From an uncultured Acidimicrobiaceae bacterium (GTDB lineage: Bacteria > Actinomycetota > Acidimicrobiia > Acidimicrobiales > RAAP-2): a DNA stretch of 64,000 nucleotides. Of this stretch, positions 6,213 through 28,467 are shown one piece after another. The stretch covers positions 3,980 through 67,979 of the forward strand of contig CAWITA010000034.1 of assembly GCA_963838835.1 (NCBI GenBank), read 5' to 3'. Made by a program: the position numbers and the translations under genes. A model generated the notes under the pieces. It had not been told where the DNA came from. It did not search any database and worked only from the letters and a program-made list of their open reading frames with translations. How positions within the stretch are numbered: position 1 is the stretch's first letter; each line of letters opens with the position of its first letter.

Positions 6213-6498
6213 GCAACCTCGGCTCGATTTCGTGCGCTGGCGACGACAACGAGGATGAATTGATCAGAAGTTGAGCAGTGCGGAACGGGTCGGATGCACA
6301 CACCAATGCGGTGGTTCGTGCCCCAAGAAGCGCTCGGATATCACGGTTGGGCTGGACTTTTTCGCTGACCCGACGCGCGCCGTGGGCTCAGCGTGTCATG
6401 GTCGTCGAGTCTCCTCCCCACAGCACAACGCCTTCTCTCAACAGGGACTTTGCGGATAAGTTAACTACGTCACTGTTGGACGAGGTCCGGCCGTGGCG

Positions 6499-6562
6499 GG
6501 CGGAGGCGGTCCGCTCACAGGAGCGTGAATCTTGGCGAAGTGGCGAATTGGCGCAGCTGCAC
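6499..6562 (+). promoter_or_regulatory. Conserved 64-nt element upstream of pilin-like gene A1 (paralog at 17319-17382)
   Basis: A gap-free hand alignment to 17319-17382 gives 52/64 identical positions. It contains a 5-bp stem hairpin (6512-6525, CGCTC-ACAG-GAGCG). The three stem substitutions in the paralog all become G-U pairs. Confidence 0.45.
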
Positions 6563-6615
6563 ATTCCGGCAGCGATCAACGGGTGTTGCCGCGCGCCTGT
6601 GCGACAGCGGGGCGT

Positions 6616-8143
6616 GTGTCTCGTGCGCGCCGCCAGGCTGATCACACTGTACGGCGATCGAACGAATCGAACGCCGGATTCACGCTCATAGAACTGGTCA
6701 TCGTGACGGCGGTCCTGCCCATCGTCATCGGCGCCCTCGCGGTAGGCATCATCTCAGTCTTCTCGTTGCAGTCCAGCGTTTCGAATCGTCTGACCGATTC
6801 GGGTGACGCGGCAGGTGATCTCCATCGACTTCGACAGGGACGTCCAGAGCGCGATCTTGCTGACGACAAGCAGCAATCCACCAAGTCCAGGTCAATGTGG
6901 GACGGGTTTTGCGATCTTGGGACTGCAGCTCGGAAATTCCACAGAAGTCACCTACGCCGCAGCACAAAACGGAAACTCCTACACCCTGTCGAGAAACCTC
7001 TGCACAGTAAGCGGCGGGGCCACCACCCTCCAGAGTTCAGTCGTGGTCGGACGGGACCTGCCGGCATCCATACTCAGTGCGACTCCTCCGACCACCAGCA
7101 ACGTGGCGACATTTCCGGTGTCAATCCCGCAGTGTCTACAGACTCCTACTCCACAGATAGCCGCCTGCGACGCCATCGGACCCAGTTTCGCCTATCAGAC
7201 GAATTGGGTCAGCGCTCTCGGCATCACGGCAGTCAATTTCAGTACCGGACCGAACGGGGAACCCGGGAGCAAGTACTCGTACCAACTCACAGCGGTCCCG
7301 AATGCGGCCGTTGGCACGGCGAGTCCGCCACCGCTGACACCAGGCGTTGGAGGTGGCTTCGCCGTACCCGGCACCGGCACATACTCGAAGACCCTTTTCT
7401 TCGTGAGTTTCGCCAACTGGAACACGCAGACCAAGGCGAGTGGCGTCAGTTGTACCGGGACGGCGCTGCCCGTGGCGGCACCGATCGCCAACAGCCCCGA
7501 CACCCTGTCCTTTTGCCTGAACGTCAGCGCAACCGGAAGCAATGGTAAGACAATCACGGGTGTTACATCGGGGCCAGGGACAGCCTGCGGCGTGGCGGCC
7601 AATGTCGGCTACAACGACATCGCCGCGGTGGCGTTGCCCACCTACACCTGCCCCCCGGGCAGCGAGGCTTTTCTTGGCAACAACGGTTTCTACACCGGCG
7701 TACAGGGCGACCCCGCTCTCTACACACAGGCAGAGGGGTCGACCGCTGTCCTGACGTTCACGAACATCCAAGTTGTGAGCGCAGCCGGCCTGCCGGCCAC
7801 CGGCTGGAACCTGGTGACCGGCGACGCGGAGTCGACCGACGGCGGTGAAAGTTTGACATGGCAGTCTACTCCCTCATCGTCGGTCTTCACCCTGATTCCG
7901 AACAGCGTGAATTCCTCCACGGGCGCGGTCATCTCGGACATTGGCAACGCCTGTAACGGAGCGCCGCCCACGAACCTGGGAACGCTGACCGGACTTGGTA
8001 CGACGAAGGTCGAGTGCACCGCGTCCTACTCCCGGGACAAGACGGGCACGCCCATGCTCGAGGTAACAACACCTCAATCGCTGACCATGACCCTGGTGGG
8101 CACCGGCCTTCAGGCCGTCTTCCTCGGGATCCTCCTGTCATGA
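6616..8143 (+). CDS. Prepilin-type protein A1 (about 508 aa), frame broken by one extra G at 6811
   Basis: Class III signal ...SNAG|FTLIELVIVTAVLPIVIGALAV with Glu5. Tracks 6532..7548 (frame 1) and 6803..8143 (frame 2) join exactly if G6811 is removed: GAC GCG [G] CAG GTG gives ...DSGDAQVISIDF, matching paralog A2 ...DSADAQVVSVNY. The start at GTG 6616 is inferred from the A2 ATG position. Confidence 0.8.
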
Positions 8144-11100
8144 GACGGTCGAAGCCCGTGGAACAGAGCAAAGGTCCGAAGGGCCCGCGACCTTCTCAAG
8201 ATCGGCGACGATCGGAGGCCGGCGACACTCTCGTCGAGATCCTGATCGCACTTTCCATCATCGGGATAGCGGCCACTGCGATCCTCCTCGCGTTCGCCAC
8301 CACCATTTCCGGGTCGGGCGCTCACCGCAACGAGGTCACCCTCGACACTATGTTGAGGACGGCGTCAACCGAAGTCTCGGCTGCCATTGAGCAGCAGTCG
8401 ACCGCAACCTTCTCGAGCTGCGCGGGAGCGTACGTTTACCACACACCTGGCTCCATTCCCCTGCCGAATCCTGCCTACTCGGCCTACATCTCGGCGGTCC
8501 AGTACGAGAGCGCAAACCCGGCCGCCAGCGGAGACACCTACGCCCTGTCTGCTCCGCAGGCGCCGAGCACGACGTGCCCGACGGGATCCACGCCCAACCC
8601 GTACGCCGATTCGCCGCAGATGCTCACGATCTCGGTCACGTACACCGGCCAAGGCGGAGGAACCCCCTCAACGATCCAGACCGTCGTTGACGATCCGAAT
8701 TCACCTCCGAGCGCAACGTCGTGCACCTCTCCCTACCAATTGGTCTTTTTGGAACAACCAACCGACGGCCCCAACGGCTCTGCGGGGAGCGTGGGATCGG
8801 CGCTCTACCCGCCCGCAATCGTACAAATCGAGGACAAGAACGGTAACCCTTGCCAGAACGACTTCGCCACGGTCAAGCTGAGCATCACGGCCGGCACTGG
8901 GGCGAGTGGTGCGAGCTTGCAAAATTGCACGCCTTCGTCACAGTACGGGGAGACGATCTACGCGGGCTGCGAGATCAACGAGCCCAATCAGCCGGGGGAC
9001 GGCTACACGCTTACGGCGACCGACGCCGTTGATGGTCTCTCGGTGACCTCCAACCCCTTCGACGTCAGTGCCGGTGCCGCGGCCCAGCTCGTTTTCACGA
9101 CGGAACCAGGCAATGGGACCGGCGGAAGCGCGTTTGGGCAGCCGGTCGTGTGGATCGAGGACTCGCAGGGAGATCTCCTGACCAATGACACCAGCCCAGT
9201 GACGCTGGCCATCCAAACGAACCCCGGAGGCGGCACCCTGTCTGGCTGCAGCGAGACCACCGACGGAGGCATCGCGACGTTCACAGGCTGCACCATCAAC
9301 AAGGTCGGGACCGGCTACACCCTCGCGGCGACCGACGCGGTCGACAACCTGACGACACCGTCGGTGAGCAAACCGTTCAACATCACACCGGGTCAGCCGG
9401 TCGCGCTCACGTTCACCAATTCACCCGGGACGACTGTGGCAGGGGACCCGTTTGGGTCCCAACCCGTGGTCACACTGTTGGACGCAGGCGGCAACACCGC
9501 GAGCGTCGCGCCCGGCAGCACCGACACAGTGGGACTGGCGATCGGCACCAACGCCGGGGGCAGCGGAACTGCCCTGTCGGGCTGCACCGAGACGACGACG
9601 GCGGGCGTCGCCATCTTCGCCGGTTGCTCCATCAATAACCCCGGAAACGGCTACACGCTGGTGGCGACCGACACCACCGAGCCAACGAAAGTCCTGCCGG
9701 CGACCAGCAATGCGTTCAATATCGTGACTCCGACACTGACCTCGTTCAAGGTCGCTCCTGCAACCACGACCCCGACGGCCGGCACAGCCTTCAATGTCAC
9801 GATCACGGCCCTCGACCAGTCCGGCTACACCTTTACTGGCTTCACGGGGACGCAAAACATCACCTTCAGCGGCCCGGCGAACGCGCCCAACGGCACCGCG
9901 CCGACCTACCCCGGTTCGGTTACCTTCACTGGCGGCGTGGGCACGGCCTCCGTCACCCTGGTGGACGCCCAGACCACCACGCTGACGGCTGCTCAAGGCT
10001 TGGTCACCGGCACCTCGGGCAACATCACCGTGAGCAGCACCGGCACGGTCACCAAGTTCTCGCTCTCGACCCCGGCGCCGACGGCCGGGTCGCCCTTCAC
10101 CGAGACCATCACCGCCGTCGACACCTACGGCAACACGGTGACCGGCTACACCGGGACCAAGACCATGACCTTTAGCGGTCCGGCGAGCTCGCCCAACGGC
10201 ACCGCCCCGACCTACCCAACTCACCTGACCTTCACGGCCGGGTCGGCCACCGCGACCATCACCTTGACCGACGTCCAGACCACGACGCTCACCGCCTCGA
10301 CTACCACCGGCGGCACCGTCAGCGGCACCTCGGCCAGCTTCACGGTCGCCCCGGGAGCCGCCTCGACGTTCACCGTGTCGAACCCGAGCCCCCAGGTGGC
10401 GGGCACGGCGTTCAACGTCACGATCACCGCCGTCGACGCCGATGGCAACACGGCCACGGGCTACACCGGGACCAAGACGATGACCTGGAGCGGCCCGGCG
10501 AACTCGCCCAACGGCACCGCCCCGACCTACCCGGCCACGCTCAGTTTTGCCGCCGGATCGGCCACGGCCTCGGTGACCCTGGTCGACGCCCAGACCACGA
10601 CGCTCACCGCCAGCTCCACCACGACGGGCACGGTCAGCGGCACCTCGGGCAACATCGTGGTGAACGGGACCGGCACGGTCACCAAGTTCTCGCTCTCGAC
10701 CCCGGCGCCGACGGCCGGGTCGCCCTTCACCGAGACCATCACCGCCGTCGACACCTACGGCAACACGGTGACCGGCTACACCGGGACCAAGACCATGACC
10801 TTTAGCGGTCCGGCGAGCTCGCCCAACGGCACCGCCTCGACCTACCCGGCGGCGCTCACCTTCACGACCGGGTCGGCCACCGCGACCATCACGCTCACCG
10901 ACGTCCAGACCACGACGCTCACCGCCACGACTACCACCGGCGGCACCGTCAGCGGCACCTCGGCCAGCTTCACGGTGGCCCCGGGGGTCGCAATCAAGTT
11001 CACCGTGGCGAACCCGAGCCCCCAGGTGGCAGGCACGGCGTTCAACGTGACGATCACCGCCGTCGACGCCGATGGCAACACGGCCACGGGCTACACCGGG

Positions 11101-14100
11101 ACCAAGACGATGACCTGGAGCGGCCCGGCGAACTCGCCCAACGGCACCGCCCCGACCTACCCGGCCACGCTCAGTTTCGCCGCCGGATCGGCCACGGCCT
11201 CGGTCACCTTGGTCGACGTCCAGACCACGACGCTCACCGCCAGCTCCACCACGACGGGCACGGTCAGCGGCACCTCGGGCAACATCGTGGTCGGTCCGGG
11301 CTCCCCGCACAGCCTTACGGTGGCCAACCCAGGTCCCCAGGTGGCGGGCACGCCCTTCAACGTGACCATCACCGCTGTCGATGCCGACGGCAATACGGCA
11401 CCCACCTACACCGGATCTCAGACCATCACGTTCTCGGGTCCGTCGAACGCGCCCAACGGAACCGCCCCGACCTACCCGGCCAACGTCACCTTCACCGGAG
11501 GCGTGGGCACGGCCTCGATCACGTTGGTCGACGCCCAGACCACGACGTTGTCAGCCGCACAGGGCCTTCTTGTCCCCGTGCCGTCTCCTAGCTTCGTGGT
11601 CAGCAGCACCGGCACGGTCACCAAGTTCTCGCTCTCGACCCCGGCGCCGACGGCCGGGTCGCCCTTCACCGAGACCATCACCGCCGTCGACACCTACGGC
11701 AACACGGTGACCGGCTACACCGGGACCAAGACCATGACCTTTAGCGGTCCGGCGAGCTCGCCCAACGGCACCGCCCCGACCTACCCGGCGGCGCTCACCT
11801 TCACGACCGGGTCGGCCACCGCGACCATCACGCTCACCGACGTCCAGACCACGACGCTCACCGCCACGACTACCACCGGCGGCACCGTCAGCGGCACCTC
11901 GGCCAGCTTCACGGTGGCCCCGGGGGTCGCAATCAAGTTCACCGTGGCGAACCCGAGCCCCCAGGTGGCAGGCACGGCGTTCAACGTGACGATCACCGCC
12001 GTCGACGCCGATGGCAACACGGCCACGGGCTACACCGGGACCAAGACGATGACCTGGAGCGGCCCGGCGAACTCGCCCAACGGCACCGCCCCGACCTACC
12101 CGGCCACGCTCAGTTTCGCCGCCGGATCGGCCACGGCCTCGGTCACCTTGGTCGACGTCCAGACCACGACGCTCACCGCCAGCTCCACCACGACGGGCAC
12201 GGTCAGCGGCACCTCGGGCAACATCGTGGTCGGTCCGGGCTCCCCGCACAGCCTTACGGTGGCCAACCCAGGTCCCCAGGTGGCGGGCACGCCCTTCAAC
12301 GTGACCATCACCGCTGTCGATGCCGACGGCAATACGGCACCCACCTACACCGGATCTCAGACCATCACGTTCTCGGGTCCGTCGAACGCGCCCAACGGAA
12401 CCGCCCCGACCTACCCGGCCAACGTCACCTTCACCGGAGGCGTGGGCACGGCCTCGATCACGTTGGTCGACGCCCAGACCACGACGTTGTCAGCCGCACA
12501 GGGCCTTCTTGTCCCCGTGCCGTCTCCTAGCTTCGTGGTCAGCAGCACCGGCACGGTCACCAAGTTCTCGCTCTCGACCCCGGCGCCGACGGCCGGGTCG
12601 CCCTTCACCGAGACCATCACCGCCGTCGACACCTACGGCAACACGGTGACCGGCTACACCGGGACCAAGACCATGACCTTTAGCGGTCCGGCGAGCTCGC
12701 CCAACGGCACCGCCCCGACCTACCCGGCCACGCTCAGTTTTGCCGCCGGATCGGCCACGGCCTCGGTGACCCTGGTCGACGTCCAGACCACGACGCTCAC
12801 CGCCTCGACTACCACCGGCGGCACCGTCAGCGGCACCTCGGCCAGCTTCACGGTCGGCCCGGGAGCCGCCTCGACGTTCACCGTGTCGAACCCGAGCCCC
12901 CAGGTGGCGGGCACGGCGTTCAACGTCACGATCACCGCCGTCGACGCCGATGGCAACACGGCCACGGGCTACACCGGGACCAAGACGATGACCTGGAGCG
13001 GCCCGGCGAACTCGCCCAACGGCACCGCCCCGACCTACCCGGCCACGCTCAGTTTCGCCGCCGGATCGGCCACGGCCTCGGTGACCCTGGTCGACGCCCA
13101 GACCACGACGCTCACCGCCAGCTCCACCACGACGGGCACGGTCAGCGGCACCTCGGGCAACATCGTGGTGAACGGGACCGGCACGGTCACCAAGTTCTCG
13201 CTCTCGACCCCGGCGCCGACGGCCGGGTCGCCCTTCACCGAGACCATCACCGCCGTCGACACCTACGGCAACACGGTGACCGGCTACACCGGGACCAAGA
13301 CCATGACCTTTAGCGGTCCGGCGAGCTCGCCCAACGGCACCGCCCCGACCTACCCGGCGGCGCTCACCTTCACGACCGGGTCGGCCACCGCGACCATCAC
13401 GCTCACCGACGTCCAGACCACGACGCTCACCGCCACGACTACCACCGGCGGCACCGTCAGCGGCACCTCGGCCAGCTTCACGGTGGCCCCGGGGGTCGCA
13501 ATCAAGTTCACCGTGGCGAACCCGAGCCCCCAGGTGGCAGGCACGGCGTTCAACGTGACGATCACCGCCGTCGACGCCGATGGCAACACGGCCTCCACCT
13601 ACACCGGGACCCAGACCATGACCTTCTCCGGCCCGGCGAACTCGCCCAACGGCACCGCCCCGACCTACCCCGGTTCGGTCACCTTCACCGCCGGCGTGGG
13701 CACGGCCTCGATCAAGCTGGTCGACGTCCAGACCACCACATTGACCGCCGCACAGGGCTCGATCACCGGCACCTCGGGCAACATCGTGGTCGGCCCGGGA
13801 GCCGCCTCGACGTTCACCGTGTCGAACCCGAGCCCCCAGGTGGCGGGCACGGCGTTCAACGTGACCATCACCGCCTTCGACGCCGATGGCAACACGGCCA
13901 CGGGCTACACCGGGACTAAGACGATGACCTTCAGCGGCCCGGCGAACTCGCCCAACGGCACCGCCCCGACCTACCCGGCCACGCTCACCTTCACGGCCGG
14001 GTCGGCCACGGCCTCGATCAAGCTGGTCGACGCCCAGACCACGACGCTCACCGCCAGCTCCACCACGACGGGCACGGTCAGCGGCACCTCCGGCAACATC

Positions 14101-14755
14101 GTGGTGAACGGGACCGGCACGGTCACCAAGTTCTCGCTCTCGACCCCGGCGCCCACGGCCGGGTCGCCCTTCACCGAGACCATCACCGCCGTCGACACCT
14201 ACGGCAACACGGTGACCGGCTACACCGGGACCAAGACCATGACCTTTAGCGGTCCGGCGAGCTCGCCCAACGGCACCGCCCCGACCTACCCGGCGGCGCT
14301 CACCTTCACGACCGGGTCGGCCACCGCGACCATCACGCTCGACCGACGCCCAGACCACGACCCTCACCGCCTCGACTACCACCGGCGGCACCGTCAGCGG
14401 CACCTCGGCCAGCTTCACAGTGAGCACAGGAACCGCTACGTCGATTGCCGCAACCTCTGGCTCGGGGCAGTCAGTCCGTCACAACCGAGCGTTTCCGAAT
14501 CCTCTCGTCGCAACCGTGACCGACGCTTATGGGAACGACGTCTCAGGGGTGTCGGTCACATTCAGCGCGCCAACCACGGGTGCCTCGCTCACCTTTGCCG
14601 GTAGCGGTACCACCTATGTGACGACGACCACTGCGACCGGCGTGGCCACGTCCGCGCCCATGACCGCCAACGGCACCGCGGGGGCTAATTACGTCGTGAC
14701 AGCTTCGATTACCGGCACTGGTACAGAGACGACTTACACGGAGACCAACACATGA
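8140..14755 (+). CDS. Giant prepilin-type protein B1 (about 2204 aa) with about 19 Ig-like modules; frame broken by one extra G at 14341
   Basis: ATG 8140 overlaps the A1 stop (ATGA). The 28-aa basic leader ends ...RRRSEAG|DTLVEILIALSIIGIAATAILLAF (Glu5 present). Three modules of about 105 aa (QLVF..P..G..FG.QPVV...D..GN type) are followed by about 15 modules of about 104 aa (GTAFNVTITAVDADGNTATGYTGTKTMT.SGPANSPNGTAPTYP type). At 14341 the sequence ATCACGCTC[G]ACCGAC shifts into the frame of track ORF 14420..14755, which supplies the last module and the stop. Confidence 0.85.
10672..12549 (+). repeat. Two tandem near-identical 939-bp units (three Ig-like modules each) inside B1; a third partial copy runs to about 12720
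   Basis: Antisense track ORFs recur identically at an offset of 939 (10842/11781, 11157/12096, 11381/12320, 11472/12411). I saw one mismatch, TCG at 10838-10840 versus CCG at 11777-11779. A further copy of part of the unit lies at an offset of 2508 (10527/13035). Confidence 0.9.
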
Positions 14756-16326
14756 TCGTCAGTGTCAGACGTTGGCTGAAGCGCGAAGCCTCATGCGTCG
14801 CGTCGCGCCGCCGCGACGAAGCCGGTGCCTCCCTTGTGCTGGCTCTGCTGTTCCTCGTGGTGATCGGCCTGATCGTGGGTGGCTTGGCGTCGTGGACCGC
14901 CAACGATCTCTCTGATGCGGTGGTGTTCCAGAATGCCCGGTCCGCGGAATTCGCCCTCAACAGCGCGACGCAGTTGGCGGTCCAGAACATCCGGTACGTG
15001 CCCCTGATCAGTTCGAACTCTGTTTTAGGGACCGACGAGACCTTGAACGCCAGCCCCCCTGAATACTGTTGGGATCCTGGCCCTGCTGGCCCGGGCGGGA
15101 ATGCTGGCACGGAACTCACCACCCAAGGCGACACCGTCGCGGTCTGGTGCAGCACGCAATGGAATCCCGCATCGACCGCGACGCGCAAGGTGACCATCGA
15201 CGCGTGCCTTATTTCCCCAAGCGTGTCGATCACCACCTCGAATTGGCAAGGTCTGTCGACCGGCTGTGCACAAAGCCCGAACCTCCAGACGGTGGTGTCG
15301 TTCGACGACTACCAGTCCAATCTGAGCTCTACGAGCCCTTGTACGTCGACGTGTGGAACAGGTATGACGATCGACAGTTCGAGCGCGGGTCCGACGAACC
15401 CGACCGTGACGGGACTCTCGACCGCACCCGTGACGTCACCGCCTAGTGGACTGGTGACAGGTGGGACAGCTTTAACGATTACAGGGTCGGGCTTCGTCAA
15501 CGGTTTGACGACGGTATTCCTCGTTGACCCGTTGGTAGCCAATCTGGTCATCACGATCCCGTCCAGCAGTGTGACGTTCAATTCCTCGACTTCGATCTCG
15601 GTCACGACGCCTGGCGTGACCACCTCAGCGAACTACGACGTCGCGGTCTCGACACCCAACGGCAACAGCCTCGACGGCCCCCAGTTCGCATACCAGCCGG
15701 TAATTCCGACGATCAGTAGCATGACGCCGACTACTGGATCTGCCAACGGCGGAACCGCGCTGACCATCGACGGGACGGGCTTCCTTGCCAACGGCAACGG
15801 TGACCTCACGAAGGTGACTTTCACGGACACCGCGAACTCGGCCATCACGGCGACGGCACCGGACCTGTCCGTCAATTCGACGGGCACCGTCATCACCGCC
15901 ACGACACCGTCAATCACGACTGAAGCGACCTACTACGTCACAGTGACAACCACACCTGGCGGCACCACCGCGCAAAGCGCAAACTTCGAATTCACCTTCC
16001 AGCCGTACTACCCGGTGGCTGACTCCATCACTCCGGCGTCGGGTAGCAGCGGGACTGTGACCGTCACCGGCTTGGGGTTTCTGAGTGGGGGAACGACGGT
16101 CACCCTCATCCCGACAGCCGGTGGAAACGGTTTCAGCCTGACCAACGTCTCGGTGTCGTCATCGACGAACTTGACCGCGCAAATTCCAACAGGCGAGCCC
16201 GTTGCAACGTACTACGTCTCAATCACCACGACATGGAACGGGACGCAATACCAGAGTTGTAACTCCAACGGAAGCGGCGGTATACCGAGCTGCTCGTCAG
16301 AGGGAGCTCCCACTTACCAGTACTGA
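14752..16326 (+). CDS. PilX/GspK-like minor-pilin-type protein C1 with three IPT/TIG domains (524 aa)
   Basis: ATG 14752 overlaps the B1 stop (ATGA). The N-terminus ...RRRDEAG|ASLVLALLFLVVIGLIVGGLASWTANDL...ARSAEFALNSA resembles PilX_N and has no Glu5. Three TIG-like units are PSGLVTGGTALTITGSGF, TGSANGGTALTIDGTGF and SGSSGTVTVTGLGF. Confidence 0.8.
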   Translation: MIVSVRRWLKREASCVASRRRDEAGASLVLALLFLVVIGLIVGGLASWTANDLSDAVVFQNARSAEFALNSATQLAVQNIRYVPLISSNSVLGTDETLNASPPEYCWDPGPAGPGGNAGTELTTQGDTVAVWCSTQWNPASTATRKVTIDACLISPSVSITTSNWQGLSTGCAQSPNLQTVVSFDDYQSNLSSTSPCTSTCGTGMTIDSSSAGPTNPTVTGLSTAPVTSPPSGLVTGGTALTITGSGFVNGLTTVFLVDPLVANLVITIPSSSVTFNSSTSISVTTPGVTTSANYDVAVSTPNGNSLDGPQFAYQPVIPTISSMTPTTGSANGGTALTIDGTGFLANGNGDLTKVTFTDTANSAITATAPDLSVNSTGTVITATTPSITTEATYYVTVTTTPGGTTAQSANFEFTFQPYYPVADSITPASGSSGTVTVTGLGFLSGGTTVTLIPTAGGNGFSLTNVSVSSSTNLTAQIPTGEPVATYYVSITTTWNGTQYQSCNSNGSGGIPSCSSEGAPTYQY

Positions 16327-16339
16327 GAGCACCTCGATA

Positions 16340-16825
16340 ATGCCCAGCACGTCTCGTACAATCAACCGCGCTTTCTTGGGCGGTCTCACCTCTATCGTCC
16401 TAGCTCTTGGACTGACGGCGTGTGCCGTATCTAGCGGCAACGACGGCAGTCTGGCTGGGACAAGCGGCGCTTCGAGTCGCTGCCTTGGTACGTACACATT
16501 CCGGAGCTCCGATCAGCATGTGAATCTCCCCGGCCTTCCCAATCTGGCCGACAACTCCATGAACTCCACCGTGACGCCTACCCCCGTCAACGCTACCGGG
16601 TGCGCGAGCACCGACCCGAATGTCAGGTCTTGCATCTACGTCGCGGCCGACCAACTGCGAGTCGTCGTCCGGAATGGACATGTGACAATCAGTAATCCGA
16701 CCGGTCACCCGCTGCTCGCAACTGGTCGCGCGAAAGGCGACGAGCTTGACCTCATTTGGATGACCTACGGCGTTGGTTCTCGCTCCGTCGTATTCGACTT
16801 TCGATGCGGAGAAGTCGTGCGCTAA
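16340..16825 (+). CDS. Putative lipoprotein (161 aa), present only after cassette 1
   Basis: Signal peptide with lipobox: MPSTSRTINRAFLGGLTSIVLALGLTAC|AVSSGN. ATG lies at 16340, 14 nt after the C1 stop. No recognisable family. Confidence 0.6.
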   Translation: MPSTSRTINRAFLGGLTSIVLALGLTACAVSSGNDGSLAGTSGASSRCLGTYTFRSSDQHVNLPGLPNLADNSMNSTVTPTPVNATGCASTDPNVRSCIYVAADQLRVVVRNGHVTISNPTGHPLLATGRAKGDELDLIWMTYGVGSRSVVFDFRCGEVVR

Positions 16826-17318
16826 CGCGTAGCGAGTTTCTCGCATTTTCGTTGTCGTGCGTCAGCACCACCAACACGCTTCAGATGTGAGATTGGCCTC
16901 GATGCCGGCCCCGGCTCCGTGAAAAGCCTGGCTCGTCGAGAGATCCATCCGGCAGTCTCAGTCCCCGATGATGGAGGGCGGTACTGTCCCCCCGTGTCCA
17001 CCATGCGAGCTAGACCGTGCTCGGCAAGGAGGCACATCCGCCCCCTCGTGGTCACGCCCCCAGTCGTGGTGAACTCAAAACGGGCGTAACCCTGCCCCCA
17101 GGGCGCAGCTGCTTTCCACACCATCGCTTTGCCCCTGCGCTCCCCGGGTTGAGCACGAAATTGTTCACAAGTTGAACATCAAGATCCATGCACCGCGTGC
17201 CGACATTAACGGTGATTCCTTCGCTCTGGACCAGCGGAGATCCCGGTTCGGCGGGACCTCCCGACCTGGGGCGTTGGAGCGAATCACCCTGGCTGAAGGG
17301 TCAGACACGGGCCGCCTA

Positions 17319-17382
17319 GGCGGAGGCGGTCTGTTCACGGGAGTGTGAGTTTTGGCGAAACGGCATATTGGCGAGGCTGCAC
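17319..17382 (+). promoter_or_regulatory. Conserved 64-nt element upstream of pilin-like gene A2 (paralog of 6499-6562)
   Basis: 52/64 identity to 6499-6562 without gaps. The equivalent hairpin lies at 17332-17345 with G-U pairs. Confidence 0.45.
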
Positions 17383-17429
17383 GGTCGGGAACCGGCCAAC
17401 GCGGGTTGCGTCGCGCCTTCGCGCCTGTC

Positions 17430-18944: not shown

Positions 18945-21900
18945 GGCGCCGGCGAGCTGACGTTGATCGTTTGACCGGGCCGCCCCAGAACGAGGACAGG
19001 CGCCGCTCGGAGGCAGGCGACACCCTGGTCGAGATCCTGATCGCCCTCGCGGTGATCGGCATCGCGGCGACGGCTCTCCTCCTCGCCTTTGCCACGTCCA
19101 TCTCGGGCTCGGGAGAGCACCGCAACCTGGCGACCTTCGACACCATGCTGAGGACGGCGTCCGCGGAGGCCTCCTCACTCATTCAGCAGCAGTCACTCGC
19201 GGACTTCACCAGCTGTTCGGGGGCGTACCTGGTGAACCAGCAGGGCATCCCTCTCCCGAACGCCGCAGCCCCCGCGGCCAACCCCTACTCCGCCAGCATC
19301 ACCGGTGTGCAGTACTGGAATTCCGCCGCCAACCCGCCCGCTTTCACCACATTGCCCTGGACTCCCACCACCACGTGCCCGCCCGGAGTGACCGGAGGAG
19401 GTCCCCAGCTACTCACGGTGACGGTCTCGTTCCACGGCGGCAGCGGTAACACGAGCTCCTCCCTGACGACCGCGGTCGACAACCCCATTCCTCCGCCGCC
19501 CGCATCGAGTTGCGTCGGCGGCGCCACCCAATTGGTTTGGGTGTCGCAACCCGGCAACGGAAGTGCCGGATCGGCGCTCTACCCAGCACCGACATTGGTG
19601 CTCGAAAACTCGACCGGCTGCATCGAGCAGACCGATGCCTCCAGCGTCACCCTCAGCGTCGCGTCGGGTCCGGGCACGCTGACGAACTGCGTGCCCAATC
19701 TGCTCTACGGCGAGACTACGTTCCAGGATTGCACGCTCGGCACCCCCGGGACCTACACGCTGGGCGCAACCGATGCCACCGATGGCATCACGAAGCCCGT
19801 ATTGAGCAACTCCTTCGTCATTTCCCAGGGTGCTCCCGCCAAACTGGTCTTCTCCACGCAACCCGGAAACGGGACCGGTGGGTCTCCGCTCAGTACGCAG
19901 CCCGTCGTGTCCATCGAGGACGCGAACGGCAACCTCGTTCCGGGCGACAGCAGCATGGTCACGCTGGCGATCGGGACGAACCCGGGTGGCGGGACTCTCT
20001 CTGGATGCACCGGTACTTCGAACGGGAATGGCATCGTCTCCTTCGCCGGGTGCAAGATCGACAAAATTGGGACCGGGTACACCCTGACCGCGACCGACGC
20101 CGCGGACAACCTGACGACAGCGTCGGCCCCGAGTAATCCGTTCAACATCACGCCCGGCCCGGCGTACCAGCTCGCATTCACGACGTCGCCAGGGACAAGC
20201 GTGGCTCAGGACCCGTTCGGGACCCAGCCCGCCGTCACCCTGCTGGATGCGGGGGGCAACGTCGCCACTGGAAGCACCGATGCCGTCAAACTGGCAATCG
20301 GCAACAACCCAGGCGCGGGCACTCTCTCCGGTTGCTCAGAGACGACGAGCGCCGGAGTGGCCAACTTCAGCGGTTGCTCCATCAATAATCCTGGAACCGG
20401 CTACACGCTCGTAGCGACCGACACGACCAACCCTGCGGTGCTGTCCTCAACGAGCGGCGCGTTCAATGTCGTGGCACAGGCGCTGACCTCGTTCCAGGTC
20501 TCTAACCCGGGAACCCAGACGGCCGGGCACCAGTTCAGCGTGACGATCACGGCCGAAGACCAGGCTGGGTTCAAGTTCACCGGCTACACGGGCGCCCAGA
20601 CGCTCACATTCACCGGCCCGTTGAGCTCACCCAATCCTGTGACCGCCCCCGTCTACCCCTCTGGTGGCACGGTCACCTTCTCGGGTGGCACGGGTACGGC
20701 ATTGGTCACCCTCTACAACGCCTCGAACACGACCAACCTGACGGTCGCCCAGGGTGGAGCGACCGGCAGCACGGGCAACTTCATCGTGCACCCGGCCGGC
20801 GCCTCGAGCTTCACCGTGACCGGTTACCCCAGCCCGACCACGGCCGGGGCGTCCCACAACGTGACGGTCACCGCCTATGACACCTATGGCAACGTGGCCA
20901 CCGCCTACGCCGGCACCGTCCACTTCACGAGCAGCGACGCCCAGGCCACGCTGCCGGCCAACGCCACCCTCACCAACGGGACCGGCACCTTCTCGGCCAC
21001 GCTCAAGACGGCGGGGACCCAGTCGATCACGGCCACCGACACGGTGACGAGCTCCATCACCGGCAGTCAAAGCGGCATCACGGTGCACCCGGCCGGTGCC
21101 TCGAGCTTCACCGTCGCCGGCTTCACCAGCCCGACCACGGCCGGCGCGTCCCACAACGTGACGGTCACCGCCTATGACACCTATGGCAACGTGGCCACCG
21201 CCTACGCCGGCACCGTCCACTTCACCAGCAGCGACGCCCAGGCCACGCTGCCGGCCAACGCCACTCTCACCAACGGGACCGGGACCTTCTCGGCCACGCT
21301 CAAGACGGCGGGGACCCAGTCGATCACCGCCACCGACACGGTGACGAGCACGATCAACGGTTCGCAGTCCGGCATCACGGTGAACCCGGCCGGCGCGAGC
21401 AAGCTGGGCTTCGTCCAGCAGCCCACCACGACGCAGGCCGGAGGTGTCATCACCCCGTCGGTGACCGTCCAGGTCCAAGACACCTATGGCAACGCGGTGG
21501 CCGACTCGGGGGCGACGGTGACCATGAGCGTCAACACCGGACCCGGGTCCTTCACCGGTGGTTCGACGACGAGTGCCACGACGAGCGCAGCCGGGCTGGC
21601 CACGTTCAACAACCTGGTCCTCGACACCTCGGGCAGCTACACGCTCCAGGCGGCCTCGAGCCCCCTCACCTCGGTCACCTCGAACTCCGTGACGGTGAAC
21701 CCGGCCCCGGCGACCCACTTCACCGTGACCGGTTACCCCAGCCCGACCACGGCCGGCGCGTCCCACAACGTCACGGTCACCGCCTATGACACCTATGGCA
21801 ACGTGGCCACCGCCTACGCCGGCACCGTCCACTTCACCAGCAGCGACGCCCAGGCCACGCTGCCGGCCAACGCCACCCTCACCAACGGGACCGGCACCTT

Positions 21901-24900
21901 CTCGGCCACGCTCAAGACGGCGGGGACCCAGTCGATCACGCGCCACCGACACGGTGACGAGCACGATCAACGGTTCGCAGTCGCGGCATCACGGTGAACC
22001 CGGCCGGCGCGAGCAAGCTGGGCTTCGTCCAGCAGCCCACCACGACGCAGGCCGGAGGTGTCATCACCCCGTCGGTGACCGTCCAGGTCCAAGACACCTA
22101 CGGCAACGCGGTGGCCGACTCGGGGGCGACGGTGACCATGAGCGTCAACACCGGACCCGGGTCCTTCACCGGTGGTTCGACGACGAGTGCCACGACGAGC
22201 GCAGCCGGGCTGGCCACGTTCAACAACCTGGTCCTCGACACCTCGGGCAGCTACACGCTCCAGGCGGCCTCGAGCCCCCTGTTCGGCACGTCGGGCAGCT
22301 TCACCGTGAACCCGGCCCCGGCGACCCACTTCACCGTGACCGGTTACCCCAGCCCGACCACGGCCGGGGCGTCCCACAACGTCACGGTCACCGCCTATGA
22401 CACCTATGGCAACGTGGCCACCGCCTACAGCCGGCACCGTCCACTTCACGAGCAGCGACGCCCAGGCCACGCTGCCGGCCAACGCCACCCTCACCAACGG
22501 GACCGGCACCTTCTCGGCCACGCTCAAGACGGCGGGGACCCAGTCGATCACCGCCACCGACACGGTGACGAGCACGATCAACGGCATCGCAGCGGGCATC
22601 ACGGTGAACCCGGCCGGCGCCTCGAGCTTCACCGTCGCCGGTTACCCCAGCCCGACCACGGCCGGAGGGGCCCACAACTTCACGGTCACCGCCTATGACG
22701 CCTACGGCAACGTGGCCACCGGCTACGCCGGCACCGTCCACTTCACCAGCAGCGACGCCCAGGCCACGCTGCCGGCCAACGCCACCCTCACCAACGGGAC
22801 CGGCACCTTCTCGGCCACGCTCAAGACGGTCGGGACCCAGTCGATCACGGCCACCGACACGGTGACGAGCACCATCACCGGCGCCCAGTCCATCTCGGTC
22901 CTCTCGTCGACGGCGACCCACTTGACCGTCAGCGGCTTCACCAGCCCGACCACGGCCGGCGCGCCCCACAACGTCACCGTGACCGCCTACGACGCCTACG
23001 GCAACGTGGCCACCGGCTACACGGGCACCGTCCACTTCACGAGCAGCGACGCCCAGGCCACCTTGCCCGCCAACTACACCTTCACCAGCGGCGTCAGCGC
23101 GGACAACGGGGTCCACACCTTCACCAACGGGGCCACGCTCGCGACGGCGGGGACCCAGTCGATCACCGCCACCGACACGGTGACCAGCTCCATCACCGGC
23201 GTCCAAAGCGGCATCACCGTGCACCCGGCCGGCGCCTCGAGCTTCACCGTGACCGGTTACCCCAGCCCGACCACGGCCGGGGCGTCCCACAACGTGACGG
23301 TCACCGCCTATGACACCTACGGCAACGTGGCCACCGCCTACAGCCGGCACCGTCCACTTCACGAGCAGCGACGCCCAGGCCACGCTGCCGGCCAACGCCA
23401 CCCTCACCAACGGGACCGGCACCTTCTCGGCCACGCTCAAGACGGCGGGGACCCAGTCGATCACCGCCACCGACACGGTGACGAGCTCCATCACCGGTGT
23501 CGCAGTCCGGCATCACGGTGAACCCGGCCGGCGCCTCGAGCTTCAACGTCACCGGCTTCACCAGCCCGACCACGGCCGGCGGGGCCCACAACTTCACGGT
23601 CACCGCCGACGACGCCTACGGCAACGTGGCCACCGGCTACGCCGGCACCGTCCACTTCACGAGCAGCGACGCCCAGGCCACGCTGCCGGCCAACGCCACC
23701 CTCACCAACGGGACCGGCACCTTCTCGGCCACGCTCGAGACGGCGGGGACCCAGTCGATCACGGCCACCGACACGGTGACGAGCTCCATCACCGGCAGTC
23801 AAACCGGCATCACGGTGAACCCGTCGACGGCGACCCACTTGACCGTCGGCGGCTTACCCCAACCCGACCACGGCCGGGGCGTCCCACAACGTGACGGTGA
23901 CCGCCGACGACGCCTACGGCAACGTGGCCACCGGCTACGCCGGCACCGTCCACTTCACGAGCAGCGACGCCCAGGCCACGCTGCCGGCCAACGCCACCCT
24001 CACCAATGGGACCGGCACCTTCTCGGCCACGCTCAAGACGGCGGGGACCCAGTCGATCACGGCCACCGACACGGTGACGAGCTCCATCACCGGCAGTCAA
24101 AGCGGCATCACGGTGCACCCGGCCGGCGCCTCGAGCTTCACCGTCGCCGGCTTCACCAGCCCGACCACGGCCGGCGCGTCCCACAACGTGACGGTCACCG
24201 CCTATGACACCTATGGCAACGTGGCCACCGCCTACGCCGGCACCGTCCACTTCACGAGCAGCGACGCCCAGGCCACGCTGCCGGCCAACGCCACTCTCAC
24301 CAACGGGACCGGCACCTTCTCGGCCACGCTCAAGACGGCGGGGACCCAGTCGATCACCGCCACCGACACGGTGACGAGCACGATCAACGGTTCGCAGTCC
24401 GGCATCACGGTGAACCCGGCCGGCGCGAGCAAGCTGGGCTTCGTCCAGCAGCCCACCACGACGCAGGCCGGAGGTGTCATCACCCCGTCGGTGACCGTCC
24501 AGGTCCAAGACACCTATGGCAACGCGGTGGCCGACTCGGGGGCGACGGTGACCATGAGCGTCAACACCGGACCCGGGTCCTTCACCGGTGGTTCGACGAC
24601 GAGTGCCACGACGAGCGCAGCCGGGCTGGCCACGTTCAACAACCTGGTCCTCGACACCTCGGGCAGCTACACGCTCCAGGCGGCCTCGAGCCCCCTCACC
24701 TCGGTCACCTCGAACTCCGTGACGGTGAACCCGGCCCCGGCGACCCACTTCACCGTGACCGGTTACCCCAGCCCGACCACGGCCGGGGCGTCCCACAACG
24801 TCACGGTCACCGCCTATGACACCTATGGCAACGTGGCCACCGCCTACGCCGGCACCGTCCACTTCACCAGCAGCGACGCCCAGGCCACGCTGCCGGCCAA

Positions 24901-26644
24901 CGCCACCCTCACCAACGGGACCGGCACCTTCTCGGCCACGCTCAAGACGGCGGGGACCCAGTCGATCACCGCCACCGACACGGTGACGAGCACGATCAAC
25001 GGTTCGCAGTCCGGCATCACCGTGAACCCGGCCGGCGCCTCGAGCTTCACCGTCGCCGGTTACCCCAGCCCGACCACGGCCGGAGGGGCCCACAACGTCA
25101 CGGTCACCGCCTATGACGCCTACGGCAACGTGGCCACCGGCTACGCCGGCACCGTCCACTTCACGAGCAGCGACGCCCAGGCCACGCTGCCGGCCAACGC
25201 CACCCTCACCAACGGGACCGGCACCTTCTCGGCCACGCTCAAGACGGCCGGGACCCAGTCGATCACGGCCACCGACACGGTGACGAGCACCATCACCGGC
25301 GCCCAGTCCATCTCGGTCCTCTCGTCGACGGCGACCCACTTGACCGTCAGCGGCTTCACCAGCCCGACCACGGCCGGCGCGCCCCATACCGTCACCGTGA
25401 CCGCCTACGACGCCTACGGCAACGTGGCCACCGGCTACACGGGCACCGTCCACTTCACGAGCAGCGACGCCCAGGCCACCTTGCCCGCCAACTACACCTT
25501 CACCAGCGGCGTCAGCGCGGACAACGGGGTCCACACCTTCACCAACGGGGCCACGCTCGCGACGGCGGGGACCCAGTCGATCACCGCCACCGACACGGTG
25601 ACCAGCTCCATCACCGGCGTCCAAAGCGGCATCACGGTGCACCCGGCCGGCGCCTCGAGCTTCACCGTGACCGGTTACCCCAGCCCGACCACGGCCGGGG
25701 CGTCCCACAACGTGACGGTCACCGCCTATGACACCTACGGCAACGTGGCCACCGCCTACGCCGGCACCGTCCACTTCACGAGCAGCGACGCCCAGGCCAC
25801 GCTGCCGGCCAACGCCACCCTCACCAACGGGACCGGCACCTTCTCGGCCACGCTCAAGACGGCGGGGACCCAGTCGATCACCGCCACCGACACGGTGACG
25901 AGCTCCATCACCGGTTCGCAGTCCGGCATCACGGTGAACCCGGCCGGTGCCTCGAGCTTCAACGTCGCCGGTTTCACCAGCCCGACCACGGCCGGAGGGG
26001 CCCACAACTTCACGGTCACCGCCGACGACGCCTACGGCAACGTGGCCACCGGCTACGCCGGCACCGTCCACTTCACGAGCAGCGACGCCCAGGCCACGCT
26101 GCCGGCCAACGCCACCCTCACCAACGGGACCGGCACCTTCTCGGCCACGCTCGCGACGGCGGGGACCCAGTCGATCACGGCCACCGACACGGTGACGAGC
26201 TCCATCACCGGCAGTCAAACCGGCATCACGGTGAACCCGGGGGCAGTCGCGGGCATCGGCTTGACCAATATCACCAACCAGCCGATCCCGGCCCTGACCT
26301 GCACCGGTGCCGTCGGCAGCATCACCTGCACGTCGACGGGTGAAGGCAACCTCAACGGCAGCGGCAACGCCTCGGCTCGGACGGCGACGGCCAACATCGA
26401 GTTGCAGGACGAGTACGGCAACGCAGTCACCAACACTGGGGCCAGCATCTCCATCGCCCTGTCGGTCGGTACAACGGCCGGCACGGTCAATGGGGGAACG
26501 ACGGCAACGTTGACGATACCGAATGGTTCGTCGAAGTCGTCGACCCAGTTCACCTTGGTTCGTACCAGCGGCTCGAATAAGACCGCCACCATGACCGCCT
26601 CGGTAAGCGGGACCACCGAGCTCACCGTCACACTGTCGAGTTGA
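18941..26644 (+). CDS. Giant prepilin-type protein B2 (about 2565 aa) with about 23 Ig-like modules; six single-base frame breaks between 21939 and 23862
   Basis: ATG 18941 overlaps the A2 stop (ATGA). The 26-aa leader ends ...DRRRSEAG|DTLVEILIALAVIGIAATALLLAF. The first ~500 residues are collinear with B1. One B1-type module follows, then about 18 modules of about 100 aa (GASHNVTVTAYDTYGNVATAYAGTVHFTSSDAQATLPANATLTNGTGTFSATLKTAGTQSITATD type, with three interspersed KLGFVQQPTTTQAGG type). Track ORFs 18737, 21994, 22397, 23310, 23497 and 23891 join when single extra bases are removed (see findings). Confidence 0.8.
20789..26220 (+). repeat. Array of about 300-bp Ig-like module repeats in B2, with kb-scale near-identical blocks at offsets of 3030 and 2418 bp
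   Basis: Antisense track ORFs recur identically at 21202/24232 (offset 3030) and nearly identically at 22723/25141 (offset 2418). The segment around 21082 matches the one around 24112 with isolated mismatches. Confidence 0.9.
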
Positions 26645-28467
26645 TGATGCGGAGTCCGATGCCTTACACAGACATGCAATCCGCCAAGGCGAGGGTGCCG
26701 AGGCCGAGGCGGCCCGGTAAGAGCCTGCCTCCGTCGGGTCGGGACACGGTGGCCGTCCGTTGGCAGGAGCAAGGCCGCGACGAGGCGGGAGCCGTCCTCG
26801 TCCTGGCCCTCCTCTTCCTCGTGGTGATCGGACTGATCGTGGGCGGGTTGGCGTCGTGGACAGCGAACAGCCTTACCGACACCCTCACATTCCAACAGTC
26901 CCGTTCCGCCCAGTACGCCCTCACCAGTGCGTCCCAGGTGGCAATCCAGAACATGCGGTACACCCCGCTCCTGTTCACGGCAGGTCCGCCTCAGTCGTTC
27001 CAGACGCTTAACGCCAACCCGCCGTCGTATTGCTGGGGATCGAGCGGGGATCCCACCTATGGCGGGTCCACGTTTGCCACCCAGGGCAACCCGAACGTGA
27101 ACGTGTACTGCAGCACGGTGTGGAATCCGACCAGCTCCGCGACGCGGGTCGTGACGATTTCTGCCTGCCTCGAGAGCGCTCTACCGCAGAATCCCTCCAC
27201 TGCCCCGGGGGTGTGTGCCGCCAATCCAGGTCTCCAGACGATCGTGACCTTCGATGACTACTCCGCGAACACCCCGGTGGTCAGCGCCGCGATTTGCAGC
27301 GCGACCTGCGGAAACGGAATGACGATCGACAGTTCGACGTTCCACCTGGTGGCGCCGACGGTCACCGCGCTTTCGACCGTCCAAGGGCCCGTCACCGGAG
27401 GGACCGCATTGACCGTGACCGGATCTGGCTTCGTGAGCGGCTCGACCACGGTGAACTTCGTCTCGACGAATGCCTCCCAGAACCTGATTGTTCCTGCGGG
27501 GACCGTTGTCGCGGACGGCGTGACGGTCAGCGGCTCGCCGAACATCGCAAGTGCGACGGCGAACTTCACACAGTCCGACATCGGCCAACCGATCTCCGGC
27601 GCTGGGATCCCGGCTGGCACGAACATCCTCTCCGTGACGAGCGCAACGGCAGCGGTCATGTCGAACAACGCGACTGCGAGCGCGAGCGGCGTCACGCTCA
27701 CGCTCCCGGTCACCGTGAACTCCGCCACGTCGCTCTCGCTGACGACACCCGCGGTGACCACAGCCACCAGTTACTACGTCATCGTGACCACTCCCAACGG
27801 CTCGAACACGGGCGGCCCTTCGTTCGCCTATCAGCCGGTTGTGCCAACGGTCAGCGGCGTCACTATCCCGAGCGGACTCACACCACCGTCGGGTTCGGCC
27901 GCAGGCGGCACGTCGATCACCGTCACCGGAACGGGTTTCCTCAGCAACCTCCACGGCAACTCATCGACCGTCAACTTCGTGGACGTCGCGAACCCAGCCG
28001 TCACCTTTCAAGCGCCCAGTCAGTCGGTGTCGGTGAACGCAAGCGGCACCGTGCTCACGGCAGTCACGCCCGGCATCACGTCGACGGACACGAACTTCTA
28101 CGTCACTGTCACGACGGCACCGGGCGGGACGAGCGCCCAACAGGCATCCGTCGTGTTCACATTCCAGCCGCTCTACCCCGTTGTCTCCGGCATCACTCCG
28201 ACGTCCGGTTCCCTCAACAGCACCACCGCGGTGACCATCACGGGCATCGGGTTCGTGAGCGGTGCAACCACGGTCCAACTCATTCCCCAGTCGGGTTTCG
28301 GCACGACGGTCAACATCCCTGCCACGAATGTCTCCGTTTCGTCCTCGACGACCCTCACCACGACCATTCCGGCGATCGGCGGCACGGCTCAGCAGTACTA
28401 CGTTCAGGTGACGACGACGACGGGCGGCGCAAGCGGCACCAGCGGAGCTCCCGTCTTCACCAATTAG
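26644..28467 (+). CDS. PilX/GspK-like minor-pilin-type protein C2 with three IPT/TIG domains (about 607 aa)
   Basis: ATG 26644 overlaps the B2 stop by 1 nt (TGATG); a later in-frame start is possible. The N-terminus ...GRDEAG|AVLVLALLFLVVIGLIVGGLASWTANSL is nearly identical to C1. TIG-like units are QGPVTGGTALTVTGSGF, SGSAAGGTSITVTGTGF and SGSLNSTTAVTITGIGF. Confidence 0.8.
   Translation: MMRSPMPYTDMQSAKARVPRPRRPGKSLPPSGRDTVAVRWQEQGRDEAGAVLVLALLFLVVIGLIVGGLASWTANSLTDTLTFQQSRSAQYALTSASQVAIQNMRYTPLLFTAGPPQSFQTLNANPPSYCWGSSGDPTYGGSTFATQGNPNVNVYCSTVWNPTSSATRVVTISACLESALPQNPSTAPGVCAANPGLQTIVTFDDYSANTPVVSAAICSATCGNGMTIDSSTFHLVAPTVTALSTVQGPVTGGTALTVTGSGFVSGSTTVNFVSTNASQNLIVPAGTVVADGVTVSGSPNIASATANFTQSDIGQPISGAGIPAGTNILSVTSATAAVMSNNATASASGVTLTLPVTVNSATSLSLTTPAVTTATSYYVIVTTPNGSNTGGPSFAYQPVVPTVSGVTIPSGLTPPSGSAAGGTSITVTGTGFLSNLHGNSSTVNFVDVANPAVTFQAPSQSVSVNASGTVLTAVTPGITSTDTNFYVTVTTAPGGTSAQQASVVFTFQPLYPVVSGITPTSGSLNSTTAVTITGIGFVSGATTVQLIPQSGFGTTVNIPATNVSVSSSTTLTTTIPAIGGTAQQYYVQVTTTTGGASGTSGAPVFTN

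Follow-up and report, generated by a model that had tools for sequence, protein, structure and literature searches.

The DNA analysed here, a stretch of 64,000 nucleotides (nt) of contig CAWITA010000034.1 from an uncultured Acidimicrobiaceae bacterium (GCA_963838835.1), hereafter referred to as the window, carries two cassettes of three genes encoding prepilin-type proteins, designated A, B and C, at positions 6532–28467. Both cassettes are oriented in the same direction and extend over positions 6532–16326 (cassette 1) and 17352–28467 (cassette 2). Based on sequence features, profile matches, predicted folds and a triad that is conserved and, in related genomes, linked to pil genes, the cassettes probably encode sets of minor pilins that prime and tip a type IVa (T4a)-like pilus encoded elsewhere in the genome, and they would represent alternative copies of such sets that are not linked to the machinery. 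This reading agrees with the proposal of a first-pass annotation, made from the sequence and its open reading frames (ORFs), that the proteins are prepilin-type tip or fibre modules for a type IV filament machine; prepilin profiles, helices modelled by AlphaFold2 and pil-linked triads in relatives now support it.

Cassette 1 comprises A1 (6532–8143), B1 (8140–14755) and C1 (14752–16326), and cassette 2 comprises A2 (17352–18944), B2 (18941–26644) and C2 (26641/26644–28467), all on the forward strand. Coordinates, the identical gene order and the start/stop overlaps were as described in the first-pass annotation: ATGA was read directly at 8140, 14752 and 18941, and TGATG at 26642, where the ATG of C2 at 26644 overlaps the stop codon of B2. 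Likewise, the N-termini quoted there for A, B and C were found in the translations, with A and B keeping the glutamate at position 5 (Glu5) and C being devoid of it.

Protein A represents a modular prepilin with a predicted beta-sandwich head. In both A1 and A2, the leader ends in ...SNAG↓FTLIELVIV (the arrow marks the predicted cleavage site), with Glu5 kept, and both proteins pass the cut-off of 16.3 bits for the prepilin profile TIGR02532 (18.7 bits for A1, 17.3 bits for A2), which was also matched by 16 of 20 A relatives. Moreover, a profile built from 20 A relatives matched solved type IV pilins (7tgg, E = 3.8e-5). The AlphaFold2 model of A2, with a predicted local distance difference test score (pLDDT) of 69, consists of a helix at residues 26–80, a beta domain at residues 83–222 and a separate beta-sandwich at residues 243–502; helix and following strands together are predicted to form a 'lollipop' pilin fold at a pLDDT of approximately 70–80. 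Furthermore, A2 matched the CshA_NR2 family (PF18651) with 25.3 bits against a cut-off of 24, over model positions 16–195 of 196. No CshA_NR2 match was obtained for A1 in the Pfam scan, and many A relatives carry a precomputed PF18651 match. Foldseek searches with the A2 model placed CBM6/CBM61-like jelly-rolls at an E-value of about 0.03.

Homologues of A and C number in the hundreds, and their homology is far beyond chance: E-values reached 0 for public entries of identical sequence, and the nearest relative gave 1e-261. For A, more than 535 homologues sharing words were recovered, and more than 705 homologues for C, and an exhaustive search with A yielded 352 clusters at 50% identity (E ≤ 1e-30). 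A2 is 100% identical to public protein P0001, the public annotation of this gene beginning at the ATG at 17430 (504 amino acids, aa), and C2 is 91% identical to P0145 on the contig of the closest relative. Public names of the parts read 'prepilin-type...', 'IPT/TIG' or, in JGI entries, PulG and PulJ, and one relative is named 'CshA/CshB family fibrillar adhesin-related' by NCBI. Among a group of relatives comprising P0464, P0475, P0481, P0503 and P0377, some matched the pilin module of A alone (profile positions 16–224), the C-terminal parts being different. Conversely, the A head module was encountered within proteins of 1027 aa and 2174 aa, the latter being the non-pilin protein P0503; these findings suggest that modules are shuffled.

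Protein B is a giant prepilin of 2204 aa (B1) or 2565 aa (B2) after frame correction, and these lengths equal those given in the first-pass annotation. Its leader ends in ...RRRSEAG↓DTLVEILIAL with Glu5 kept in both copies, and N-terminal fragments exceeded the PF07963 cut-off of 21.2 bits, with 22.4 bits for the N-terminal 267 aa of B1 and 22.7 bits for B2. A pilin module of approximately 200 aa is followed by a chain of about 20–24 Ig-like domains. In B1, these include approximately 14.6 tandem units of 105 aa (Tandem Repeats Finder period 315 nt, 9838–14416) plus further Ig-like domains, and the repeats weakly resemble CshA_repeat (PF19076; 19.3 bits, under the cut-off of 27). B2 features about 18 tandem units of 99 aa (Tandem Repeats Finder period 297 nt) that are Big_1/Invasin_D3-like (Pfam E-values of 7.8e-24 for Big_1 and 2.6e-18 for Invasin_D3), as well as an internal duplication of 2.1 kb (21692–23823 versus 24110–26239, 97.6% match). 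The N-terminal 640 aa of B1 and B2 are 57% identical, compared to only about 36–37% in the repeat regions. Both proteins are rich in threonine (21–23%) and serine (10–11%). Across related loci, the length of B ranges from approximately 300 to approximately 3250 aa, as deduced from the distance between the starts of B and C. Searches for homologues of B returned only fragments of at most 750 aa and, for the non-pilin part, generic Ig-repeat proteins.

Protein C (524 aa for C1, 607–608 aa for C2) is pilin-like at its N-terminus, which reads ...RDEAG↓A.LVLALLFLVVIGLIVGGLASW, i.e., ...RDEAG↓A(S/V)LVLALLFLVV, and ...RDEAG↓ASLVLALLFLVV... in C1, in each case without Glu5. IPT/TIG domains are present in both copies; in C1, Pfam TIG was matched in three stretches (2e-16). 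The AlphaFold2 model of C1 (pLDDT 75.7) shows a helix at residues 24–82, a small beta domain of low confidence (strands 122–212) and three confident IPT/TIG Ig domains, and Foldseek matched this model to the IPT arrays of plexin and Met. The N-terminal helices modelled for A and C are pilin-like, with lengths of 55–59 residues.

A scan of GTDB species genomes with the A family resulted in 78 non-duplicate loci (81 fetched; individual loci are designated L001, L003 and so on). All 78 originate from metagenome-assembled genomes (MAGs) of uncultured Acidimicrobiaceae/Acidimicrobiales, which were sampled from soils in Denmark, the palsa and bog of Stordalen, the peat of SPRUCE and comparable sites. 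The A-B-C synteny recurs in this set: the N-terminus of B is encoded directly 3' of A in 77 of the 78 loci, and C follows downstream in 62, while in most of the others the contig or the flank ends first.

Type IV pilus (T4P) genes (pilB, pilC, a small major pilin gene, pilT or pilD) were found within 10 kb of the triad in 27 of the 78 loci, the other 51 cassettes being without adjacent pil genes. Two arrangements were encountered repeatedly among the linked loci. The compact form is represented by L020, an Illumina MAG, in which the genes are arranged in the order pilB (encoding MshEN and T2SSE domains), a GT87-like gene on the opposite strand, pilC, A, B, C, a small pilin gene, pilT, DUF429, a response regulator gene and pilD. 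In this locus, the pilC stop codon overlaps the start of A, and the small major pilin matches N_methyl with 29 bits; the pil cluster also encodes an OmpR-type regulator. Since no further minor-pilin gene was found among the ORFs scanned in L020, A-B-C is likely the minor-pilin set of the clade's T4aP-like system. In the divergent form, represented by L001, the triad points away from the pilB-pilC-pilin-pilT genes, with pilD located nearby. Genes for A24 peptidases lie near the triad in L001, L020, L022, L025, L037, L042, L051 and L067. Moreover, a machinery-linked cassette and a cassette without machinery within 10 kb were encountered on one and the same contig (L018 versus L055/L052).

The linked machine features PilT together with a PilB containing the MshEN domain and is therefore classified as T4a-like. 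Affiliation with type IVb pili, of which the long leaders had been taken as a sign in the first-pass annotation, was rejected: the leaders are long (21–48 aa), but the linked loci encode PilT and MshEN-PilB. The clade's small major pilin also possesses a leader of 21 aa (MFEKYKEIQQRKAAGELEESG↓FTLIELLIV), and a long leader thus represents a trait of the clade rather than a mark of type IVb pili.

Two further observations concern the pil loci of relatives. In L021, three copies of the small major-pilin gene are present (6054, 17812 and 18395), and upstream of pilB, genes for Ig-domain (He_PIG) proteins are located. Two genomes that are only distantly related carry, next to the pil cluster, a gene for a GT87-like membrane glycosyltransferase of approximately 505 aa (L001, 1049–2563, and L020, 6797–8329, both on the reverse strand); in conjunction with the Thr/Ser-rich composition of B, this makes glycosylation of the pilins possible.

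The two cassettes of the window are diverged paralogs, as had been recognized before. An origin as an assembly duplicate was rejected because the cassettes are only 48–57% identical (A 53%, using the corrected A1; C 48%; N-terminal part of B 57%, with the B repeats lower still, as given above) and because each of them has orthologues in other genomes. A1 and A2 are closer to relatives in other genomes (74% and 83%, respectively) than to each other, and the duplication is therefore old. The site just after the Exo_endo_phos gene is common to other genomes: one cassette is located there in L003, and contig CAVVPG010000004 shares the left flank and carries a cassette 1 orthologue that is 77% identical at the nt level over 10.6 kb, with a second cassette 14 kb downstream. 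In the closest relative, L004, cassette 2 and the right flank are kept at 85–87% nt identity, and a diverged cassette (L004 1–9800; A 33–37% and C 31–35% identical) occupies the upstream place of cassette 1, which suggests that cassettes turn over at one site. Cassettes that are arranged in tandem and strongly diverged were also encountered in other genomes, and contig CAVTTR010000002 harbors three, two of them beside pilB/pilC and one without machinery within 10 kb. Overall, the triad combines a carrier that is conserved with display modules that diversify rapidly.

Each cassette of the window possesses a conserved upstream element of approximately 65 nt (6498–6562 and 17317–17382, forward strand), which includes the TTG at 6532 or 17352, respectively. 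In cassette 1, it follows the pattern GGCGGAGGCGGTCCGCTCAC-AGGAG-N-TTGGCGAAGTGGCGAATTGGCG..GCTGCA and contains a Shine-Dalgarno-like GGAG; the layout shared among loci is GGCGGAGGCGGTCCGCTCAC, GGAG, 7–9 nt and TTGGCGAAGYGGCGAATTGGCGA.GCTGCA. In A-B-C operons that stand alone, the element is located where A begins, and it was detected in 34 of 58 A-upstream regions, even where the A proteins are only about 35% identical; it is conserved more than the leader following it. Copies occur in L001 (approximately 9900–9965), L005, L007, L012, L045, L061, L063, L078 and others, whereas loci with A coupled to pilC (L020) do not have the element. GGAG and TTG look like a Shine-Dalgarno site and a start codon, in which case the A leader would comprise about 48 aa and begin with MAKWRIG.AA, and the upstream box could serve as an operator. 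A structured RNA or riboswitch before A was considered and rejected: RNAalifold returned −0.46 kcal/mol for 25 copies of the element, and two hairpins drawn by hand showed 80% pairing compared to 77% after shuffling, compensatory pairs not being in excess. A Shine-Dalgarno site, a start codon, a conserved N-terminal peptide and the upstream box account better for the conservation of the element.

Based on these results, we infer processing, tip location, adhesion and interchangeability of the encoded proteins and propose the following mechanism. A, B and C would be inserted into the membrane via their class III signal peptides, and a prepilin peptidase would cut after the conserved glycine. 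The N-terminal helices of the three proteins would then come together in a small complex, which would prime the assembly of the filament and finally be located at its tip, with C as the likely capping subunit, because it is devoid of Glu5, like GspK, PilX and PilA of Streptococcus sanguinis. A would expose its beta-sandwich (CshA_NR2/lectin-like) head, B would form a stalk of about 20–24 Ig-like domains, and both together would display adhesive modules beyond the cell wall. Beneath the tip complex, the major pilin would polymerise, driven by PilB/PilC, and PilT would retract the filament. The two anciently diverged operons, each possessing its own upstream element, may provide alternative, independently controlled tips differing in specificity or length for one machine encoded elsewhere. 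As a more tentative extension, about which we are rather doubtful, the tip might be built from three pilins including one of 2,000–3,000 residues, corresponding to an Ig fibre of approximately 80–100 nm as estimated from the domain count, and several diverged cassettes might swap tip specificity and reach on one machine.

Several observations weigh against the assignment as minor-pilin sets. The pilus machinery is absent from the 64 kb of the window, as already recorded in the first-pass annotation: tblastn searches with Acidimicrobiaceae proteins of L001 (E ≤ 1e-5) detected none of pilB, pilC, pilT, pilD and the small pilin gene, and Pfam scans of the larger ORFs with high GC content at third codon positions revealed no pilus machinery. 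In the linked loci of relatives, no PilM, PilN or PilO was seen among the ORFs scanned. Regarding C, the pilin profiles TIGR02532 and PF07963 gave no match and TadE remained sub-threshold. The PilX_N model (PF14341, cut-off 25.5 bits) scored 7.5 bits for C2 and 12.2 bits for C of L001, and among 26 C relatives only four matched it at E ≤ 1, the best at 0.022. In a comparison with the PDB, a C profile matched through its IPT domains alone, the N-terminal module being without a match. The pilin nature of C thus rests on its N-terminal motif, a medium-confidence model and gene context. Of the earlier comparison of C with PilX and GspK, the missing Glu5 holds and C may function like these proteins; membership in their family is unsupported by the profile scores. 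Furthermore, the +1 residue of B is aspartate, which is unusual for a methylated pilin, and a pilin of 220–260 kDa would have to pass the cell wall. Foldseek searches of the PDB with the A2 model returned nothing significant (best E = 3e-3), and the term 'lectin-like' for the A head therefore rests on one near-threshold Pfam match, in A2 only. In addition, A1, B1 and B2 as deposited are frame-broken by +1 frameshifts, and support for pilus tips of this kind in the clade comes from sequence and prediction alone.

Alternatively, A, B and C could be pilin-like in their signal anchor only. Cut by PilD, the proteins would then stay in the membrane or in a short pseudopilus-like stub, B would act as a free-standing CshA-like Ig-repeat fibrillar adhesin, and the pil machine would merely extract or export them. 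B by far exceeds all characterised pilins in size (modular pilins are widespread, and the largest noted in a survey has 860 aa; PMC8179133), A contains a CshA_NR2-type domain of the kind known from a fibrillar adhesin, its head module is also found in non-pilin giants such as P0503, and most cassettes (51 of 78) are not located beside pil genes. However, the order pilC-A-B-C-major pilin, including the overlap with pilC, is the classic place of minor-pilin genes. Moreover, the three proteins always occur together, which is more readily reconciled with a heteromeric helix-bundle complex than with adhesins acting independently, and A and B keep Glu5. Membrane-bound adhesins are considered unlikely. 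Service to another type IV filament, either for DNA uptake (Com-like) or for secretion (an endopilus like that of type II secretion systems, T2SS) instead of an adhesive, retractile pilus, appears highly improbable. Weak N-terminal similarities to the GspH, GspI and ComGF models and JGI names such as PulG and PulJ point in this direction, but the matches are confined to the N-terminal helix that is common to these families and remain far under the family cut-offs, the linked loci encode PilT and an MshEN-type PilB, and the added modules (Ig, IPT and beta-sandwich) are of the adhesin type.

The frameshifts could also be real, with A1, B1 and B2 being decaying pseudogenes of a duplicated pilin operon and the locus non-functional as a whole. 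Comparison with A2 or with intact neighboring repeat copies mapped eight inserted bases, all within three of the six genes and within 22 kb: an extra G at approximately 6811 in A1, another at approximately 14341 in B1, and insertions at 21940, 21983, 22429, 23342, 23499 and 23856 in B2. Moreover, public annotation gives a truncated A1 of 446 aa (P0107). Deletion of the eight bases yields uninterrupted reading frames of 536 aa for A1 (from the TTG at 6532), 2204 aa for B1 and 2565 aa for B2, and restores perfect continuity with the neighboring repeat copies. In A1, the frame switch was evident from tblastn with A2 (GACGCGGCAGG in A1 versus GACGCGCAGG in A2), and the frameshift of B1 was placed against four intact repeat copies. 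All eight lesions are single-base insertions outside long homopolymers; accumulated stop codons or deletions were not observed in these genes, and C1, A2 and C2 are intact. Two of the insertions represent the same change in the same context (TACGCCGG to TACAGCCGG), and the insertions resemble errors that arise systematically in certain contexts during base-calling or polishing. Genes outside the cassettes are split too, namely uvrD (33636–34105, reverse strand), with helicase model positions 1–98 in one ORF and position 174 onward in another, and an acyltransferase_3 (AT3)/SGNH fusion divided between frames (51772–53254, forward strand); ORF-based annotation of the contig is therefore unreliable. 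Many related contigs derive from the Nanopore-based Microflora Danica MAG set. Because all lesions are insertions, two of them are identical, housekeeping genes are split as well and the MAG set is Nanopore-based, the frameshifts are probably assembly errors, and decay of the operon is regarded as quite improbable.

The genomic surroundings of the cassettes correspond to high-GC actinobacterial DNA, with a GC content of about 0.69 across the whole window. A, C and the spacer show values of 0.60–0.65 versus 0.68–0.74 in the flanks, in line with the lower GC content reported for these genes before. Behind cassette 1 only, as had likewise been pointed out, a lipoprotein-like ORF (16340–16825, forward strand) with a signal peptide and the lipobox LTAC is located, for which no Pfam or NCBIfam match and no homologue in the 81 fetched loci were found. 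It is followed by a hairpin with a T-rich tail (16832–16854, forward strand; GCGAGTTTCTCGC ATTTTCGTTG), the only terminator-like hairpin in the region, which by consensus match only is a candidate for the end of the cassette 1 transcription unit. Housekeeping functions are encoded in the left flank (2-oxoglutarate dehydrogenase, NYN RNase, a FabA-like protein and Exo_endo_phos), and the right flank encodes a thiamine pyrophosphate enzyme, a FAD oxidase, UvrD, an amine oxidase, a permease, Ddl, a Mur ligase and others. An Rfam scan of the window at gathering thresholds detected only one tRNA (59336–59409). Near the right end (61205–63373), a 722-aa protein with many WD40 repeats is encoded that has no relation to the cassettes.

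Minor-pilin sets of this kind can be compared with several known systems. T4aP are known to occur in Actinobacteria from genome surveys (PMC6668835). In S. sanguinis, PilA (without Glu5 and with a degenerate signal), PilB (vWA) and PilC (lectin plus Ig-like) have been modelled as a tip-only complex (PMC9934059). Both systems share a monoderm T4aP with PilT and exactly three minor pilins (PMC9934059, PMC8179133), one of which is devoid of Glu5 (PilA there, C here), and two large modular pilins, carrying vWA and lectin plus Ig-like modules in S. sanguinis and a beta-sandwich head and an Ig array in the triad. In contrast, there is no detectable sequence homology between them, the Glu5-less subunit of the triad is itself modular (three IPT domains), and B is four to six times larger than PilB or PilC. 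Moreover, the triad is present in multiple diverged cassettes, often away from the pil locus, and its leaders comprise 21–48 aa compared to 7–8 aa. The type IVb minor pilins CofB and TcpB share with the triad the large size, beta-rich domains joined to the pilin module, a predicted place at the tip and a long leader (PMC8179133); CofB, however, is the product of a single gene described as a trimer (PMC8179133), whereas the triad is associated with a T4a-like machine including PilT and has a ten-fold longer Ig array.

Co-transcribed minor pilins forming a priming or tip complex, with a Glu5-less cap (GspK or PilX) and a tip adhesin, are also a common feature of GspH-I-J-K of the T2SS and of FimU-PilV-W-X with PilY1 of diderm T4aP. 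The triad differs from these in comprising three genes, not four, and in having no PilY1, the adhesive modules being fused to the pilins. No family-level match to the GspH, GspI, GspJ, GspK or PilX_N models was obtained, as similarity was confined to the N-terminal helix and far under the cut-offs. The Verru_Chthon cassette proteins A–D (TIGR02596 and neighbors) constitute a four-gene cassette of Verrucomicrobia. As generally described, these prepilin-type cassettes likewise occur in multiple copies, include one very large protein and are scattered away from pilus machinery. No protein of the window matched TIGR02596 at E ≤ 0.1, and 6 of 20 A relatives did so with E-values of 0.0085 or higher, solely by way of the N-terminal helix. 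Similarity to CshA of Streptococcus gordonii is based on the near-threshold CshA_NR2 match of the A2 head (PF18651) and the weakly CshA_repeat-like units of B1; Foldseek searches with the A2 model did not recover CshA. CshA is known as a wall protein anchored by sortase rather than as a pilin, whereas the module is fused here to a class III signal peptide and a pilin module.

No literature description of the triad was found in searches covering Acidimicrobiia T4P, actinobacterial minor pilins and CshA-prepilin fusions. The statement in the first-pass annotation that the system had not been described consequently stands for the triad itself, but for S. sanguinis, tip complexes are on record that consist of three minor pilins, two modular and one without Glu5 (PMC9934059, PMC8179133). 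The principle that modular minor pilins are located at the tip of a pilus is already known, and the triad extends the modular-pilin idea without introducing a new principle. New here are a pilin of 2,000–3,000 residues, modularity of all three subunits, and multiple diverged cassettes that are often unlinked to the machinery.

If the proposed reading is true, B would exceed all other type IV pilins in size by a wide margin (survey extreme 860 aa, PMC8179133), raising the question of how a filament machine primes on a subunit of 220–260 kDa and pushes it out through a monoderm wall. With the triad, a third monoderm lineage would also possess a natural tip complex, made of three subunits that are all modular, on which the general model of minor pilins as a tip-located complex for priming and adhesion could be tested. 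Finally, the recurrent, diverged and partly unlinked cassettes suggest diversification of surface attachment in abundant uncultured Actinomycetota of soil and peat.

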